Shown here in pieces: positions 29,005 to 39,417 of a DNA stretch of 47,133 nt. The notes beneath the pieces are model-generated. The model did not search any database and was not told where the DNA came from. It saw nothing but the letters and a program-made list of their open reading frames with translations. Position 1 is the stretch's first letter; every line of letters begins with the position of its first letter. This stretch comes from an uncultured Rhodospirillaceae bacterium (lineage in GTDB: Bacteria; Pseudomonadota; Alphaproteobacteria; UBA9219). The stretch is taken from the NCBI GenBank assembly GCA_964649675.1, contig CAZYPX010000002.1:1-47133 (forward strand), in the 5' to 3' direction. The translations under genes and the position numbers were made by a program.

Positions 29005-30699
29005 ATGCTGCTTAGGCCGCGTCAGAAAATCTTTGTCGAAAATTGCGTCAAGGCTCTGAAAGAGCGCCAGAACACGCTTGGCGTCGCGCCAACTGGCGCA
29101 GGCAAAACCATTATGCTTTCGGCGGCAACAGGAGATATCCTGCGTGACACGGGCGGTAAAGCCGCAATCCTCGCCCACCGCGATGAACTCACCTCCCAGA
29201 ATGTTCTAAAGTTCTCGCGGGTCAATCCGGGCATCACGACCTCGATTTACGACGCGAACAGTAAATCATGGCGTGGACGTGCGACATTCGCGATGGTGCC
29301 GACACTCGCTCGATCCGACAACCTCTGCATGATGCCGCCTCTTGATCTGCTCGTGATCGACGAGGCCCATCATGCAGCCGCTGAAAGCTATCGCCGGATC
29401 ATCGATAAGGCCAAAGCCAACAATCCGAACGTCCTGCTCTTCGGCCTGACTGCTACGCCCAATCGAGGAGATAAGAAAGCTCTGCGCCCGGTGTTTGACA
29501 ATGTCGGCGATCAGATCCGCCTTTCTGAACTCATCAAGTCCGGGCATCTCGTCCCCCCTCGCACGTTTGTGGTCGACGTTGGGGTGCAGGACGACCTCAA
29601 GAAGGTGCGCAAGACGGCTCTGGACTTCGACATGGCCGAAGTTGCGGAGATCATGGATCGCCCGGTCGTCACCAGTGCTGTAGTCGAACACTGGAAGGAA
29701 AAAGCCGGAAATCGAAAGACGGTCGTTTTTTGCTCTACGGTCGAGCACGCCACAAACGTGACAGAAACGTTCCGACGATCTGGCATTGAGGCTGTACTCG
29801 TCCACGGCGATATGGCCCTTTGCGATCGACGCCTGACGCTCGCCCGTTTTCAGCAAGGCAGCGCGCGCGTCATCGTCAATGTGGCAGTCCTGACGGAAGG
29901 ATGGGATTACCCGCCGACCTCCTGCGTCATCCTTCTGCGGCCCAGTTCCTATCGTTCGACCATGATTCAGATGATCGGGCGCGGCTTGCGAACGATAGAT
30001 CCCAAAGAGCATCCGCATACCATCAAGACCGACTGCATCGTGCTCGACTTCGGCACATCGACCCTGATGCATGGAAGCCTTGAGCAAGACGTTAACCTCG
30101 ATGGCAAGACTGTCGAAGGTGAAGCGCCGACGAAAACCTGTCCTGAATGCGAGGCCACAGTCCCGCTTTCCGCGCGAGAATGCGCGTTGTGCGGTTATGA
30201 GTTTGCATCCGTTTCGGAGGCGGGAGACACCGGCATTGATGTTGATCCTTCCTTGCCGCTTGAGAATTTCACGCTTACCGAGATCGACCTGCTCAAGCGG
30301 AGTAATTTCCGGTGGATCGATCTGTTCGGCGATGACGCTGCTTTGATGGCATCAGGTTTCTCGGCATGGGCTGCGATCTTCTGGCTCGGCGGCTACTGGC
30401 ATGCCGTGGGCGGTTACGAACGGGCCGTACAGCTGCTCGGCACAGGAGAACGCACGGTCATGATGGCTGTGGCCGACGACTTTCTCAACGAACACGAAAG
30501 CAGCGAAAGCGCCCACAAGACCCGCCGCTGGCTCAACGAACCTGCAAGCGAAAAGCAACTCGCCCTCCTCGGTGAAGAGGCACGGCTCGATTTTAGCATG
30601 ACCAAGTATCGCGCGTCATGCCTGTTGAACTTCCGGTTTAACAAAGGCCGTATCCGTCAACTTGTCGAGAGCGCCGTGTGTAACAGGGAGGCGGCGTGA
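29005..30699 (+). CDS. Superfamily-2 DEAD/DEAH-box helicase with a C4 zinc ribbon
   Basis: 564 aa. Motif I APTGAGKT, II VIDEAHH, III GLTATPNR, VI QMIGRGLR. Zinc ribbon CPECE...CALCG. Confidence 0.85.
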   Translation: MLLRPRQKIFVENCVKALKERQNTLGVAPTGAGKTIMLSAATGDILRDTGGKAAILAHRDELTSQNVLKFSRVNPGITTSIYDANSKSWRGRATFAMVPTLARSDNLCMMPPLDLLVIDEAHHAAAESYRRIIDKAKANNPNVLLFGLTATPNRGDKKALRPVFDNVGDQIRLSELIKSGHLVPPRTFVVDVGVQDDLKKVRKTALDFDMAEVAEIMDRPVVTSAVVEHWKEKAGNRKTVVFCSTVEHATNVTETFRRSGIEAVLVHGDMALCDRRLTLARFQQGSARVIVNVAVLTEGWDYPPTSCVILLRPSSYRSTMIQMIGRGLRTIDPKEHPHTIKTDCIVLDFGTSTLMHGSLEQDVNLDGKTVEGEAPTKTCPECEATVPLSARECALCGYEFASVSEAGDTGIDVDPSLPLENFTLTEIDLLKRSNFRWIDLFGDDAALMASGFSAWAAIFWLGGYWHAVGGYERAVQLLGTGERTVMMAVADDFLNEHESSESAHKTRRWLNEPASEKQLALLGEEARLDFSMTKYRASCLLNFRFNKGRIRQLVESAVCNREAA

Positions 30700-31724
30700 A
30701 TGTGCTCGACCTCTTTTCAGGTGTCGGCGGATTCAGCCTCGGCTTCGAAGCAGCAGGTATGCAAACCGTCGCGTTCTGTGAAATCGAGTCGTACTGCCAA
30801 ACAATCCTGCGCGAGCGATGGCCCGGCGTGCCCATCCATGACGATGTGCGAAAGCTCGACGGCGCAAAATACAGGGGAACAGCTGACGTTGTTTGCGGCG
30901 GATACCCTTGCCAGCCTTTCAGCATGGCAGGACGACGCGCTGGCGCGGAAGATGAAAGACACCTCTGGCCGGAAATGCTGCGCGTTATTCGAGGCTGCAG
31001 GCCGCGATGGGTCGTTGCCGAGAATGTTGCTGGGCATATTACGCTCGGTTTCGACGAGGTTGCCGCATCGCTGGAAGCTGAAGGCTTCACCGTCTGGCCG
31101 TTTGTACTTCCAGCTTGCGCCGTTGGCGCCCCCCACCGGCGCGACCGACTCTGGATTGTGGCTCACGCCACGGGCGAACGAAAGCAGCGAGAGACCGGAG
31201 ACGTTTTTGAAACGAATGGGCGATCGCAGCGCGAGATGTCGAGGCAGTCTGACGGCGCAAGTGTTGTGGCCCACGCCAAACGTGAGGGGCTTCACAAACG
31301 ACGGAAGCGTGACGGCGCTTGCGGCAAAATGCGACAATTTCGAAGAATTTGCGGGGATGGCCTATCGAGCTGGAATAGGCAAAAAGCGACGCCTCTGGCC
31401 GACTCCCCACGGCTTCAGTCCGGACGGCAAAAGCAACGGGCCGAGCGGAAACGAGTTAGGTCGGGCCGTCAACAAATCGCTGCGCCTGTTGCCGACGCCG
31501 ACAGTCCAGGACGCCTCCAACAATGGCGGGCCTTCCCAGCATTTCCGGAACTCCTTGCCCCTCAATGCAGCGGTTGGTGGGAGTCTGAACCCGCTGTGGG
31601 TCGAGTGGCTCATGGGATACCCCATCGGGTGGACAGGTTGCGCGCGCTCGGCAACGCCATCGTCCCGCAAATTGCGGCGATCATCGGACAAGCCATCATG
31701 ACCTATGAACAGGAGAACCCGTGA
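30696..31724 (+). CDS. DNA (cytosine-5)-methyltransferase (frame A of a dual-frame locus)
   Basis: 342 aa. Motif I DLFSGVGGFSLG, IV GGYPCQPFSMAG, VI VAENV, VIII HRRDRLWIVA, X RLRALGNAIVPQ. The central ~150 aa are low-complexity R/G/Q/E/S-rich. Confidence 0.8.
   Translation: MNVLDLFSGVGGFSLGFEAAGMQTVAFCEIESYCQTILRERWPGVPIHDDVRKLDGAKYRGTADVVCGGYPCQPFSMAGRRAGAEDERHLWPEMLRVIRGCRPRWVVAENVAGHITLGFDEVAASLEAEGFTVWPFVLPACAVGAPHRRDRLWIVAHATGERKQRETGDVFETNGRSQREMSRQSDGASVVAHAKREGLHKRRKRDGACGKMRQFRRICGDGLSSWNRQKATPLADSPRLQSGRQKQRAERKRVRSGRQQIAAPVADADSPGRLQQWRAFPAFPELLAPQCSGWWESEPAVGRVAHGIPHRVDRLRALGNAIVPQIAAIIGQAIMTYEQENP
30838..31701 (+). other. Alternative +1 frame ORF fully nested in the C5-MTase gene, with protein-like content (frame B)
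   Basis: Open from 30700 (internal ATGs at 30838 and 30844). Four recurring motifs: LWLTP, LWPTP, LWPTP, LLPTP. Ends ...SLNPLWVEWLMGYPIGWT. See findings. Confidence 0.35.
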
Positions 31725-32062
31725 AATGGTGCGCCATTTGTTATCGCGAGCAACGCGGCTTCGGCTTTATGCCTGCGCTTATCAGGCAACCGAAAAAGCC
31801 TGCGCGCAGGTTCTGCAGCATGCGCTGCCTCAACAGCTACGCAAAATTATTCAAGGAGACCGGCGGCATGATTGACATGACGGACTTTGAACGCTCGGCT
31901 ATTCAAGGCTGCCTCAGACCGCTCGCTGAATGCGTGGCGGAGATCGGTATGAACAAGCCCCTGTCAGCCTACAGCAAGGAAGATATCCTTACGCTGATCG
32001 AAGTCATTGTCACCGCCTATCAAAACGAGATGCGCAAAGGCAGCCCCGAGGTGCCGTTTTGA
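31721..32062 (+). CDS. Hypothetical phage protein with an N-terminal Cys cluster
   Basis: 113 aa. CAIC...CSMRC. Coupled to neighbouring genes. Confidence 0.5.
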   Translation: MKWCAICYREQRGFGFMPALIRQPKKPARRFCSMRCLNSYAKLFKETGGMIDMTDFERSAIQGCLRPLAECVAEIGMNKPLSAYSKEDILTLIEVIVTAYQNEMRKGSPEVPF

Positions 32063-32064
32063 GC

Positions 32065-32832
32065 ATGCTCGATTTTAATCATGGCTCTGATCGTCCTGCT
32101 GTCGACCCTCGCTCGATCCCCATTCGTGACCGGATCAACGATCTCATCGATGCGGCCTTGTTGGCCGAGCGCGAACAGCAGCCACGCCGTGATTATTTGG
32201 GCGCGTCGATGCTCGGTAATGCTTGCATACGGCGCGTCCAATACGAATATGCCGGTGCACCGAAAGACCCTGGCGCAGATTTCGATGGCAAGACACTGCG
32301 CATCTTCGATGCCGGACATCAATTCGAAGCGCTTTCGATCAAATGGCTTTGCGCCGCTGGTTTCGATCTGCGCACGCAAAAAGCGGACGGCAAGCAATTC
32401 GGATTCTCTGTCGCTAAAGGCAGGATCAAAGGCCATATCGATGGCGTCATCTTGGCGGGGCCATCGTTCCTCTCTTATCCCATGCTGTGGGAGCACAAAG
32501 CTCTCAACGACAAGAACTGGCAGGATGTCGTCAAGCGTGGGCTTGCGATTTCCAAACCGCTCTATGCCGCGCAAGTTGCCCTTTATCAGGGCTACATACC
32601 CGATCTCGCGGAAAACCCTGCCTTGTTCACGGCCCTGAACAAAGACACGGAAGAGCTTCATCACGAACTCGTCCCCTTCGATTGCGCTCTGGCCCAAAGC
32701 GTCAGCGATAAAGCCGTCAACATTCTCCAAGCCACCGATGCTGGCATTCTTCTCCCCCGTATCGCCGCCAATCCCGATTTCTACGAATGCAAATTCTGTC
32801 CCTACGCCAAGCGGTGTTGGCATGGCGCATGA
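32065..32832 (+). CDS. PD-(D/E)XK nuclease with Cas4/AddB-type Fe-S cysteines
   Basis: Start at the ATG at 32065, 2 nt after the previous stop (the track ORF starts at 31930). GHIDGV ... WEHKALN (D...ExK). One N-terminal Cys (GNACIRR) plus C-terminal CKFCPYAKRC. Confidence 0.7.
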   Translation: MLDFNHGSDRPAVDPRSIPIRDRINDLIDAALLAEREQQPRRDYLGASMLGNACIRRVQYEYAGAPKDPGADFDGKTLRIFDAGHQFEALSIKWLCAAGFDLRTQKADGKQFGFSVAKGRIKGHIDGVILAGPSFLSYPMLWEHKALNDKNWQDVVKRGLAISKPLYAAQVALYQGYIPDLAENPALFTALNKDTEELHHELVPFDCALAQSVSDKAVNILQATDAGILLPRIAANPDFYECKFCPYAKRCWHGA

Positions 32833-36808: not shown

Positions 36809-38215
36809 ATGCCCAACGTCACGTTGCCCGGCGCGGTCGAGATATGGCCAACGGACAAACTCGCGCCGTATTCGCGAAACCCGCGCACGCACAGCGCGGC
36901 ACAGGTGGCGCAATTGGCCGCGAGCATTGTGGAGTACGGCTTCACCAACCCGCTGCTCGTGGCCAGCGACGGCACGGTCATTGCAGGCCACGGGCGACTG
37001 GAAGCCGCGCGCCAGCTTGGGCTTGAGGAAGTCCCAGTGATCATTCTTGATCACCTGACTCCGGCCCAGCGTCGCGCGTATGTGATTGCCGACAACCAGC
37101 TGGCACTTCAGGCTGGATGGAACGATGAGATTTTAGCCGCAGAAATGCACGCGCTTAACGGCCTCGGGTACGACCTATCGCTGACCGGCTTTGACGAAAA
37201 GGAAATCGACCGTCTTCTCGCGCCCCTTGAAGACGAGCCTGATGATAACAGCCAAGGCGAAGGCAGCGGTGAAGATCAGGCACCCATGCCGCCAAAGCAT
37301 CCTGTCTCCCGTGAAGGCGACGTTTGGCTGCTTGGCAAACATCGTTTGCTTTGCGGAGACAGCACGGAACCGTCTGCCATCACACGATTGATGGCCGGGC
37401 AGCACGCGCACTTGCTGTTCACGTCACCGCCTTATGGCAATCAGCGCGATTACACCACCGGTGGGATCAGCGATTGGGATAAGCTGATGCAAGGCGTGTT
37501 TGCCACATTGCCGATGCGCGAGGACGGACAGGTCTTGGTCAATCTCGGCCAGATCCACAAGGACGGCGAATGGCAACCGTACTGGCAAGACTGGATCGCG
37601 TGGATGCGCGAGCAGAACTGGCGGCGCTTCGGATGGTACGTTTGGGATCAAGGGCCGGGATTACCGGGCGATTGGAACGGACGCCTTGCTCCCAGCTTTG
37701 AGTTTATCTTTCATTTCAACAAAACGCCGCGCAAGGCCAACAAGATCGTGCCCTGCAAATGGGCCGGGCACATCATGCACGAGGACGAAGGCGGTCTGCG
37801 CGAGAAAGACGGCACGGTTGGCAAATGGACGCATGCCGAAAAGCCCGTTCAGGAAAACAAGATACCCGACAACGTGATCCGCATCACGCGCCACAAGGCG
37901 CGCGGGGTTGAAACCGAACACCCTGCCGTGTTCCCCGTGCGCTTGCCAGCGTTCATCATGGAAGCCTACAGCGCCGAGAGCGAGATTGTTTATGAACCTT
38001 TCTGCGGATCAGGAACCACAATTATCGCTGGCGAACAAACAGGCCGCGCTGTTCGAGCGATGGAACTTGCACCCGCTTATGTCGACGTGGCCGTGCGCCG
38101 GTGGCGCGAGATATTCCCGAATGCGCCTCTCACGCTTGAAGGCACAGGGACAAGTTTCGAAGAGACCGCCGCCGCGCGCGGCATTGATCTGACCCAAGAA
38201 AGCAAAGCCGCATGA
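36809..38215 (+). CDS. ParB/Srx-like N-terminal domain fused to a beta-class N6-adenine/N4-cytosine DNA methyltransferase
   Basis: 468 aa. ParB-N region YSRNPRTHS...IAGHGRLEAARQLG. MTase motif IV FTSPPYGN precedes motif I FCGSGTT. Confidence 0.85.
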   Translation: MPNVTLPGAVEIWPTDKLAPYSRNPRTHSAAQVAQLAASIVEYGFTNPLLVASDGTVIAGHGRLEAARQLGLEEVPVIILDHLTPAQRRAYVIADNQLALQAGWNDEILAAEMHALNGLGYDLSLTGFDEKEIDRLLAPLEDEPDDNSQGEGSGEDQAPMPPKHPVSREGDVWLLGKHRLLCGDSTEPSAITRLMAGQHAHLLFTSPPYGNQRDYTTGGISDWDKLMQGVFATLPMREDGQVLVNLGQIHKDGEWQPYWQDWIAWMREQNWRRFGWYVWDQGPGLPGDWNGRLAPSFEFIFHFNKTPRKANKIVPCKWAGHIMHEDEGGLREKDGTVGKWTHAEKPVQENKIPDNVIRITRHKARGVETEHPAVFPVRLPAFIMEAYSAESEIVYEPFCGSGTTIIAGEQTGRAVRAMELAPAYVDVAVRRWREIFPNAPLTLEGTGTSFEETAAARGIDLTQESKAA

Positions 38216-39417
38216 CCTTGACCGTTGAGCTTTGGCCGCTCGACCGCTTGCTGCCCTATGCGGCAAATGCGAGGACGCATGACGAGGCGCAGATTGCGCA
38301 GATCGCGGCCAGCATTGCAGAGTTCGGGTTCAATGCACCTTGCCTTGTCGATGATCGCGGCATCCTTATCGCTGGTCACGGTCGGCTTCTCGGGGCAAGA
38401 AAGCTTGGTTTAACCGAAGTGCCGGTTATTTGCCTTGGCCATCTCACAGAGGCTCAAGCCCGTGCTTATCGCATTGCCGACAACCGCATTGCTGAAAACA
38501 GCCAATGGGATGAAGCCATGCTCGCCGCTGAGATGGCGCGGCTGCATGAAGAGAATGTCGATCTATCGCTCCTTGGATTTGGAGATGATGAGATCGACGA
38601 TTTATTAAACACAGACGATGGCACCGAGGGTAATACGGACGACGATGCCGTCCCTGAAATTCCTGCAGAACCTAAAACAAAGCCTGGCGATATTTACGTG
38701 CTCGGCAATCATCGTTTGCTTTGCGGCGATAGTACTGTGCTGACGAACGTCAAGAAAGTCCTCGATGGCGCACTGGCCGACATGGTCTTCACGGATCCGC
38801 CGTACAATGTCGATTATGGAAATGCGGCCAAGGACAAGATGCGCGGCAACGACCGCAGGATCATGAACGACAATCTTGGCGAAGGATTTGAGAAGTTTCT
38901 CTATGATGCTTGCGTCAATATGATCTCCGTCTGCAAGGGCGCGATTTACGTCTGCATGTCATCGAGCGAACTGCACACGTTGCAGAAAGCTTTCGTCGCG
39001 GCAGGCGGCAAATGGTCAACGTTCGTCATCTGGGCGAAAAACACATTTACGCTTGGCCGGTCGGACTATCAGCGTCAGTACGAGCCGATCCTTTACGGCT
39101 GGAAACAAGGCGCGGATCATTTCTGGTGCGGCGCGCGCGATCAGGGCGATGTTTGGTTCGTCAACAAACCAACGAAGAACGATTTGCATCCAACCATGAA
39201 ACCGGTCGAGCTTGTCGAACGGGCAATCCGCAACAGCAGTAAGAGCCGTGACATCGTTCTGGATTGCTTTGGCGGATCCGGCAGCACGCTTATCGCCTGT
39301 GAAAAGACCGGGAGGCAAGCGCGGCTAATTGAACTGGATCCCAAATACTGCGATGTGATTGTTCAGCGGTGGGAGGAGTTTACTGGTAAAAAAGCTGAGT
39401 TGGTTTCAGCGTCTTAG
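38212..39417 (+). CDS. Second ParB/Srx-like domain fused to a beta-class DNA methyltransferase (CcrM-like architecture)
   Basis: 401 aa. YAANARTHD...IAGHGRLLGARKLG. Motif IV FTDPPYNV, motif I CFGGSGSTLIA. 4-nt overlap with the upstream paralogue. Confidence 0.85.
   Translation: MTLTVELWPLDRLLPYAANARTHDEAQIAQIAASIAEFGFNAPCLVDDRGILIAGHGRLLGARKLGLTEVPVICLGHLTEAQARAYRIADNRIAENSQWDEAMLAAEMARLHEENVDLSLLGFGDDEIDDLLNTDDGTEGNTDDDAVPEIPAEPKTKPGDIYVLGNHRLLCGDSTVLTNVKKVLDGALADMVFTDPPYNVDYGNAAKDKMRGNDRRIMNDNLGEGFEKFLYDACVNMISVCKGAIYVCMSSSELHTLQKAFVAAGGKWSTFVIWAKNTFTLGRSDYQRQYEPILYGWKQGADHFWCGARDQGDVWFVNKPTKNDLHPTMKPVELVERAIRNSSKSRDIVLDCFGGSGSTLIACEKTGRQARLIELDPKYCDVIVQRWEEFTGKKAELVSAS

Follow-up and report, generated by a model that had tools for sequence, protein, structure and literature searches.

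Does prophage DNA that stays open for about 1 kb in two frames of the same strand hold one gene or two, and what would the two frames make? The question is raised by a C5 cytosine DNA methyltransferase (C5-MTase) locus at 30696-31724 in a stretch of 47,133 nucleotides (nt) from an uncultured Rhodospirillaceae bacterium (assembly GCA_964649675.1, contig CAZYPX010000002.1), the whole of which we call the window. A first reading made from the letters alone, here called the original prediction, had offered three answers: a genuine gene nested in the methylase gene, a single enzyme pieced together from the two frames in the order A-B-A, or assembly indels or a relic of a recent frameshift.

M.EcoHK31I of E. 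coli HK31 (Lee, Kam and Shaw 1995; Fung et al. 2006) is a two-polypeptide C5-MTase whose beta chain has its coding sequence wholly inside the alpha gene in another frame (PMC2836561, PMC3404938). Motifs I-VIII, motif X and the target-recognition domain (TRD) lie in alpha and motif IX in beta (PMC2836561); neither chain suffices by itself, and the association is weakened when beta is truncated at its N-terminus (PMC2836561; PMC3404938). A split C5-MTase of the M.AquI type has also been described (PMC3404938). Literature searches on overlapping genes and overprinting together with methyltransferase, and on the WPTP and LLPTP motifs, returned nothing on the family to which the inner frame of the window belongs.

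In this paper we compare the two frames of the window with those of 74 distinct related loci, and conclude from their sequences that the locus probably encodes a two-polypeptide C5-MTase made from two same-strand overlapping genes, with the architecture of M.EcoHK31I. The two-chain arrangement has been described once before, for that enzyme, and is found here across many bacterial phyla.

Two reading frames in the window

The open reading frame (ORF) listing gives both frames where they had been placed, on the same strand and one base apart:

30696..31724, + strand: ORF A (alpha chain), 342 amino acids (aa), GTG start; C5-MTase large domain
30700..31701, + strand: ORF B (beta chain), up to 333 aa, ATG start; +1 frame, wholly inside A

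All peptide strings quoted in the original prediction are present, and side-by-side translation confirmed the pairs said to be read from the same bases. HRRDRLWIVA of A (31134-31163) and GLWLTP of B (31153-31170) share nucleotides, and ...GRVAHGIPHRVD (A) and VEWLMGYPIGWT (B) are likewise encoded by common nucleotides; GFTNDGSVTALAAK is a stretch of B-frame sequence. The third frame carries 12 stops over the A/B overlap, and the G+C content (GC) of the methylase gene is 58-61%.

When the synonymous codons of A were shuffled, about 1% of the shuffles left the B frame free of stops over the whole gene, and the opening of B codons 1-59 was compatible with chance (P=0.38). When the codons of B were shuffled instead, 5.2 stops were expected in A across its centre, which is open (P=0.0014). 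The significant part of the double opening in the window is B open over codons ~60-320 together with A open across the centre.

A run of six C at 31129-31134 had been noted as the place where A-type motifs stop and B-type motifs start. The run exists, but A-type motifs do not stop there, since motif VIII follows it. As a slip site the run was rejected, being upstream of motif VIII (31134-31163) and not kept in relatives, in which alignment columns 145-147 are variable.

Conservation of the two-frame layout

One genome per species was scanned with an alignment of B, which gave 456 confirmed stretches, and 80 loci were fetched, 74 of them distinct. They come from at least 12 phyla, and the groups represented are Alphaproteobacteria, Bacillota, Bacteroidota, Planctomycetota, Verrucomicrobiota, Actinomycetota, Chloroflexota, Spirochaetota, Saccharibacteria, Paceibacterota and others. 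By tblastn both A and B match all 80 loci, and B is always in the frame A+1. Frame A runs through the gene without a stop in 78 of the 80, stops in frame B are confined to the first ~60 and the last ~20-30 codons, and the third frame has 5-37 stops per locus. Whether frame B stays open in homologues had been proposed as a check; it does so from about codon 60 to about 20 codons short of the end of A in the 74 distinct loci, the genes of which have a GC of 44-68%, those of 44-49% included, and share 30-60% protein identity in both frames.

With the synonymous codons of A shuffled in these 74 loci, 6.0 stops are expected on average in B over the overlap, and with those of B shuffled, 7.5 in A. 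No stop at all occurred in 57 (B) and 24 (A) of 14,800 shuffles; the observed count is zero in 74 of 74 loci.

A protein search with B found 1,473 homologues, many of them 35-50% identical over the full length, nearly all unnamed and none with a Pfam domain. Against 1.84 billion representatives a B profile matched 48,791 clusters at 50% identity (35,649 at E<=1e-10), some of which may be single-chain enzymes with WPTP units. In PHROGs the two chains form separate families, phrog_363 for A (E 5e-85) and phrog_1008 for B (E 5e-31). The stand-alone phage family that the upstream part of B was said to resemble in the original prediction exists, but in every locus examined its member lies inside a methylase gene.

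Some single loci deserve mention. Within a single 4.5 Mb chromosome, a Roseovarius metagenome-assembled genome (MAG; OX638333.1) holds five identical nested-methylase loci (L031-L035), which suggests that a mobile element is present in several copies or that a prophage is repeated. The contig of another locus (L075), 2.5 kb long, has an archaeal assignment and sits in a MAG binned as Methanoregula sp.; an archaeal virus or an error in binning may account for this. In Acinetobacter phage vB_AbaM_ABMM1 (gp60; L085, locus 1041-1955) frame B is uninterrupted along practically the entire methylase gene, and the N-terminal half of its translation looks like ordinary protein; the record annotates the A frame alone. 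Some B-family ORFs, namely those of proteins P0299, P0311 and P0316 (468-597 aa) and of P0296, P0318 and P0332, are longer than a methylase gene: they either continue past GWTDLNHSETV with additional WPTP units or have such units upstream of where motif IV is shadowed off frame. B may therefore reach past A, at one end or the other, in some loci.

Selection on the two frames

The 74 genes were aligned by A and the entropy (H) of each codon phase was computed per column. In A codons 2-59 and 314-338 the third position is near saturation (mean H 1.73 and 1.67), and in these A-only segments there is no column in which the B residue is more conserved than that of A. Over A codons 63-158, which hold motifs IV-VIII, mean third-position entropy is 1.26, and 26 of the 96 columns, those of B W125, L135 and L139 among them, conserve the B residue better than that of A; within this dual-coded stretch PCQ, ENV and the RxR of motif VIII are invariant in A. 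The alignable columns of the centre are dominated by B, the PTP columns having H 0.4 in B as against 1.5-3.0 in A.

At A codons 295-313 both frames are conserved and third-position H is 0.69. Four-fold degenerate residues of A have fixed codons here across phyla: P299 is CCC in 64 of the 74 loci, G302 is GGT in 60, V304 is GTG in 67 and G307 is GGG in 69, the last including 25 of 25 genes below 52% GC. The codon of D313 is GAC in 60 of 74, and degenerate third positions of B are restricted in turn by A residues E298, R303, V312 and R314.

Judged from this alignment, A alone is selected over codons 1-59 and from 314 to the end, B alone in the centre, and both frames are under purifying selection of their own in two stretches, codons 63-158 and 295-313, because third positions are restricted and degenerate codons are fixed there. 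Taken with its homologues, B is by sequence a conserved protein family under its own purifying selection inside A, and the first option of the original prediction, a genuine gene nested in the methylase gene, is borne out.

Conserved residues of the two chains also meet on the same nucleotides at the junctions, where R149, R151 and W153, and W295...R311, of A coincide with G152, T156 and P157, and P298...T312, of B. One chain therefore cannot contain both.

The proposed alpha chain

Frame A has the following parts:

30708-30731, + strand: motif I (FxGxGG), sequence motif
30897-30932, + strand: motif IV, GGYPCQPFSMAG (PCQ), sequence motif
31014-31028, + strand: motif VI, ENV, sequence motif
31134-31163, + strand: motif VIII, HRRDRLWIVA (RxR), sequence motif
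31173..31577, + strand: central linker, aa 160-294, R/G/S/E/Q-rich read-through of the B recognition region
31635-31670, + strand: motif X, RLRALGNAIVPQ (GNxV), sequence motif

With motifs I, IV, VI, VIII and X in one chain, A is a C5-MTase by motif content; it scores 116.9 bits with TIGR00675 (cut-off 100.65), and PF00145 matches residues 1-189 and nothing beyond (E 1e-42). AlphaFold2 (AF2), run on A with 86 homologues, gives a predicted local distance difference test score (pLDDT) above 90 for residues 1-160 and 311-340, and about 45, with no secondary structure, for 165-306. Foldseek matches the model to M.HaeIII (1dct) and M.HhaI over only ~163 columns, which are the large domain. A folded TRD with motif IX between motifs VIII and X was not found in A, either in the AF2 model or by homology to a single-chain relative, gp71 (see below), and on the model alpha is without a folded recognition domain.

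The original prediction had remarked that the centre of A is of low complexity just where the TRD belongs, and this holds: the centre is predicted to be disordered and cannot be aligned among relatives. Its mean hydropathy is -1.22, as against -1.18 in synonymous shuffles of B, and in that comparison no selection for hydrophilicity was detected beyond the avoidance of stops. Since the absence of stops is the only constraint detected in it, this stretch of A is a read-through linker that carries the frame across the recognition region and on to the conserved C-terminal segment and motif X.

The proposed beta chain

Frame B is divided as follows, the recognition region being assigned by homology to gp71:

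30877..31152, + strand: putative N-terminal domain, aa 60-151, EQLTLF...TSGRKC...RWKLKASPSGRLYFQL; overprints A motifs IV-VIII, dual-coding
31153..31575, + strand: putative target-recognition region, aa 152-292, four WPTP-type units
31156-31170, + strand: WPTP-type unit LWLTP
31264-31278, + strand: WPTP-type unit LWPTP
31393-31407, + strand: WPTP-type unit LWPTP
31486-31500, + strand: WPTP-type unit LLPTP
31585..31635, + strand: motif IX-like element LNPLWVEWLMGYPIGWT, dual-coded with WWESEPAVGRVAHGIPHRVD of A (31575-31634)

Neither Pfam nor NCBIfam gave a match with B, and a sequence search of the PDB gave nothing significant. What B is was read from Mycobacterium phage IrishSherpFalk gp71, an ordinary single-chain methylase found by tblastn of phage records. 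Over residues 1-155 gp71 is 38% identical to A 1-155 (E 6e-44); its residues 188-226 match B 254-292 at 67% identity across 39 aa (E 2e-12), and residues 334-353 (RLNPAFPEWMMGWPTGWV) align with B 293-312, a motif IX-like LNP.WVEWLMG.P.GW element (E 2e-5); the C-terminus of gp71 aligns with A 312-338, that is motif X. Like the locus, gp71 has its catalytic motifs, an LLPTPT.QD..N.GGPSQ..RNSLPLNA recognition unit, motif IX and then motif X in that order; unlike the locus, it has them all in one frame and lacks the N-terminal domain of beta. Because of this colinear alignment, the centre and C-terminus of B correspond by homology to the target-recognition region and motif IX of the canonical enzyme; a likeness of the end of B to the element that normally precedes motif X had been suspected from the letters.

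The ~90 conserved residues of B at aa 60-151 have no counterpart in gp71 and occur, among phage records, under methylase genes only. AF2 places helices at 79-117 and a hairpin at 125-139 in this domain, with pLDDT up to 86. Relatives have 1-5 WPTP-type units per B, with a median spacing of 37 aa. Multispecific phage C5-MTases of the SPR and phi3T type carry several tandem recognition modules, each for one specificity. The variable number of WPTP units might tune or multiply the specificity of the enzyme.

The chimera test suggested in the original prediction proved uninformative, in a Pfam check that had matched A and missed B. On A(1-158)+B(158-312)+A(314-342), PF00145 covers profile positions 2-167 only, and since it also stops at 167 on the genuine single chain of gp71, the test cannot discriminate.

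Putative translation starts

30686..30702, + strand: shared initiation region; Shine-Dalgarno sequence (SD) GGGAGG at 30686-30691, A GTG 30696 (or GTG 30702), B ATG 30700

In the window the SD precedes the starts of both A and B and ends 8 nt before the ATG of B, and the TGA stop of the upstream helicase gene is at 30697-30699. The same 5' end, [GT]TGAATG, is found in seven other loci (L001, L002, L003, L005, L007, L044 and L072), and in all of these A has a weak GTG or TTG start and B an ATG four bases later.

In most other clades stops close B in the first ~55 codons, and an ATG, GTG or TTG in the B frame lies ~29-37 codons before the TSG motif, at about codon 55-60 of alpha. A GGAG or GAGG core stands 5-13 nt upstream of the B-frame start in 31 of 49 such internal-start loci, against a random-position background of ~0.09, although the true null is somewhat above this value as the best candidate start codon per window was allowed in the count. 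The internal SD often lies inside Lys-Glu codons of A (AAGGAG). Loci with an internal start and no SD are mostly from Bacteroidota, Chlorobiota and Planctomycetota.

A probable two-chain enzyme and its alternatives

The locus is best explained as follows. Alpha would be the catalytic large domain, consisting of motifs I-VIII, a disordered linker of ~135 residues, a conserved W..EP.VGRVA.G.P.RVDRL segment and the motif X helices, which would close the large domain. Beta would supply an N-terminal domain of ~90 residues, the WPTP-repeat recognition region and the motif IX element. It would be translated independently of alpha, in the clade of the window from ATG 30700 behind an SD that also serves the weak GTG of alpha, and in most other clades from an internal SD and ATG at about codon 55-60 of alpha. 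The two chains would associate into the active enzyme, probably through the N-terminal domain of beta, and this enzyme would methylate the phage or prophage genome as an orphan protective methylase. A single-chain ancestor that underwent two compensating frameshifts and then captured an internal start is the probable origin. By sequence both frames are conserved and selected, and the centre and C-terminus of beta are homologous to regions that stand in frame in gp71.

Some points weigh against this two-chain account. The likeness to M.EcoHK31I is drawn from the published description of its architecture, and the literature places the TRD of that enzyme in alpha, whereas the TRD-homologous segment of the locus is in beta. 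The AF2 model of B alone is poor (mean pLDDT 58.7, too low for a fold search), so that both the fold of B and the way it would meet alpha are presumptive. The window offers a short beta no good internal SD, and we infer the start of B at 30700 from SD spacing and motif conservation.

Alternatively, programmed ribosomal frameshifting could yield a single A-B-A enzyme, if the ribosome shifted twice, by +1 after motif VIII and by -1 before motif X. The colinearity on which this second option of the original prediction depends is real, in that A(1-155), B(254-312) and A(312-338) follow one another along gp71, and in the window the C6 run is near the first junction. The frameshift mechanism itself finds no support, and we consider it very improbable. 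A frameshifted gene has no need of an open zero frame downstream, yet A is open through a centre of 135-250 codons in every locus; the conservation of B covers ~90 codons upstream of wherever a shift could take place, and B is equipped with an SD and a start of its own; the C6 run and its flanking codons are variable, no slippery heptamer is present at either junction, and no conserved shift site was found among the variable junction codons; and the conserved junction residues of A and B are on the same nucleotides. Artefact or decay, with assembly indels or a recently frameshifted pseudogene and both frames held open by high GC, would fit a gene of 58-61% GC in which the opening of B codons 1-59 can be put down to chance. 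It does not fit 74 distinct loci, genes of 44-49% GC among them, with 30-60% identity in both frames and with the codons of four-fold degenerate residues fixed across phyla. As the two-frame layout is conserved across phyla, an assembly error or recent relic is excluded, and we give this third option practically no weight.

There is also the view that B is real but unrelated to catalysis, for example a regulator or an anti-restriction factor, and that A alone is a methylase with an unusual recognition centre. The low confidence of the AF2 model of B alone would agree with it, as would those B-family ORFs that outrun the methylase gene and carry extra WPTP units. We nevertheless hold it to be unlikely, if less so than frameshifting: the centre of A is predicted to be disordered, cannot be aligned and bears no constraint but stop avoidance, B holds the segments that in gp71 make up, in frame, the variable region and motif IX, and in phage records its N-terminal domain occurs under methylase genes only.

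Relation to known enzymes

The two-chain C5-MTase proposed here resembles M.EcoHK31I in that B is wholly inside A in another frame, with motifs I-VIII and X in alpha and motif IX in beta. It differs in that beta also overprints motifs IV-VIII and in that the locus appears as an orphan prophage methylase without an adjacent endonuclease.

With the M.AquI type the locus shares a split between motif VIII and the recognition region and an overlapping second ORF in the +1 frame. In that type the second subunit carries motifs IX and X, and the first ORF terminates shortly after motif VIII, whereas in the locus A runs on to motif X, so that the second ORF is fully nested. Arthrobacter phage Andrew has the M.AquI layout: gp43 carries motifs I-VIII, and gp44, which starts in the +1 frame 239 nt before the end of gp43, carries LLPTP units, motif IX and motif X. 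By its sequence the gp43/gp44 pair is an intermediate split form. The graded series from single chain through AquI-like split to fully nested pair would illustrate the conversion of a monomer into an obligate heterodimer through two frameshifts that compensate each other.

Homologous nested pairs occur in phages of Paenibacillus larvae, where the inner ORF is already entered as a coding sequence (Diva gp50, 'g49 internal gene'; Bloom gp56/gp57). The likeness is one of annotation only, and the genome paper did not analyse the overlap or assign it a role (PMC6070908).

The locus belongs to a known but little-recognised kind, and this has consequences for annotation. Most records name alpha alone, as "DNA cytosine methyltransferase", or beta as a hypothetical protein, and with alpha-only annotation the recognition subunit of a very common type of phage and prophage methylase is routinely missed. 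Alpha expressed alone would probably give an inactive enzyme. Naturally split methylases serve as scaffolds for targeted methylation (PMC2836561), and the B family offers thousands of natural variants for the engineering of split methylases. As an example of long dual coding on one strand in bacteria and phages, the locus is also strong and statistically clean and, if the reading is true, among the longest and best supported such regions in prokaryotes and their phages.

A wider proposition goes further: that the B family is the beta subunit of a very widespread nested two-chain C5 class, with ~95 dual-coding codons in which two conserved and probably folded segments are encoded together in at least 12 phyla, and that the recognition domain of the M.EcoHK31I class is to be assigned to beta instead of alpha. 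We regard this as evenly poised between true and false.

Genome context

The methylase gene lies in a prophage replication module with an integrase, a Sak4-like annealing protein, a helicase, a Cas4-domain exonuclease and a primase. No endonuclease was seen beside it, and its setting makes it a probable orphan methylase with a protective role.

Neighbouring genes overlap by the four nt GTGA at 30696-30699, where the helicase stop falls inside the methylase start, and at 31721-31724, where the methylase stop in turn falls inside the start of the ORF that follows (phrog_21342). The overlaps suggest a translationally coupled chain.

Further on, at 36809-38215 and 38212-39417 on the + strand, stand two DNA methyltransferase genes in tandem whose products have a ParB-like N-terminal domain (phrog_498, E 6e-117 and 7e-164), and the prophage therefore holds three methylase genes in about 9 kb. 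The 300-aa ORF at 31930-32832 on the + strand matches the Cas4-domain exonuclease over residues 66-300 only and overlaps the preceding 113-aa ORF by 133 nt, so its real start is probably further downstream.

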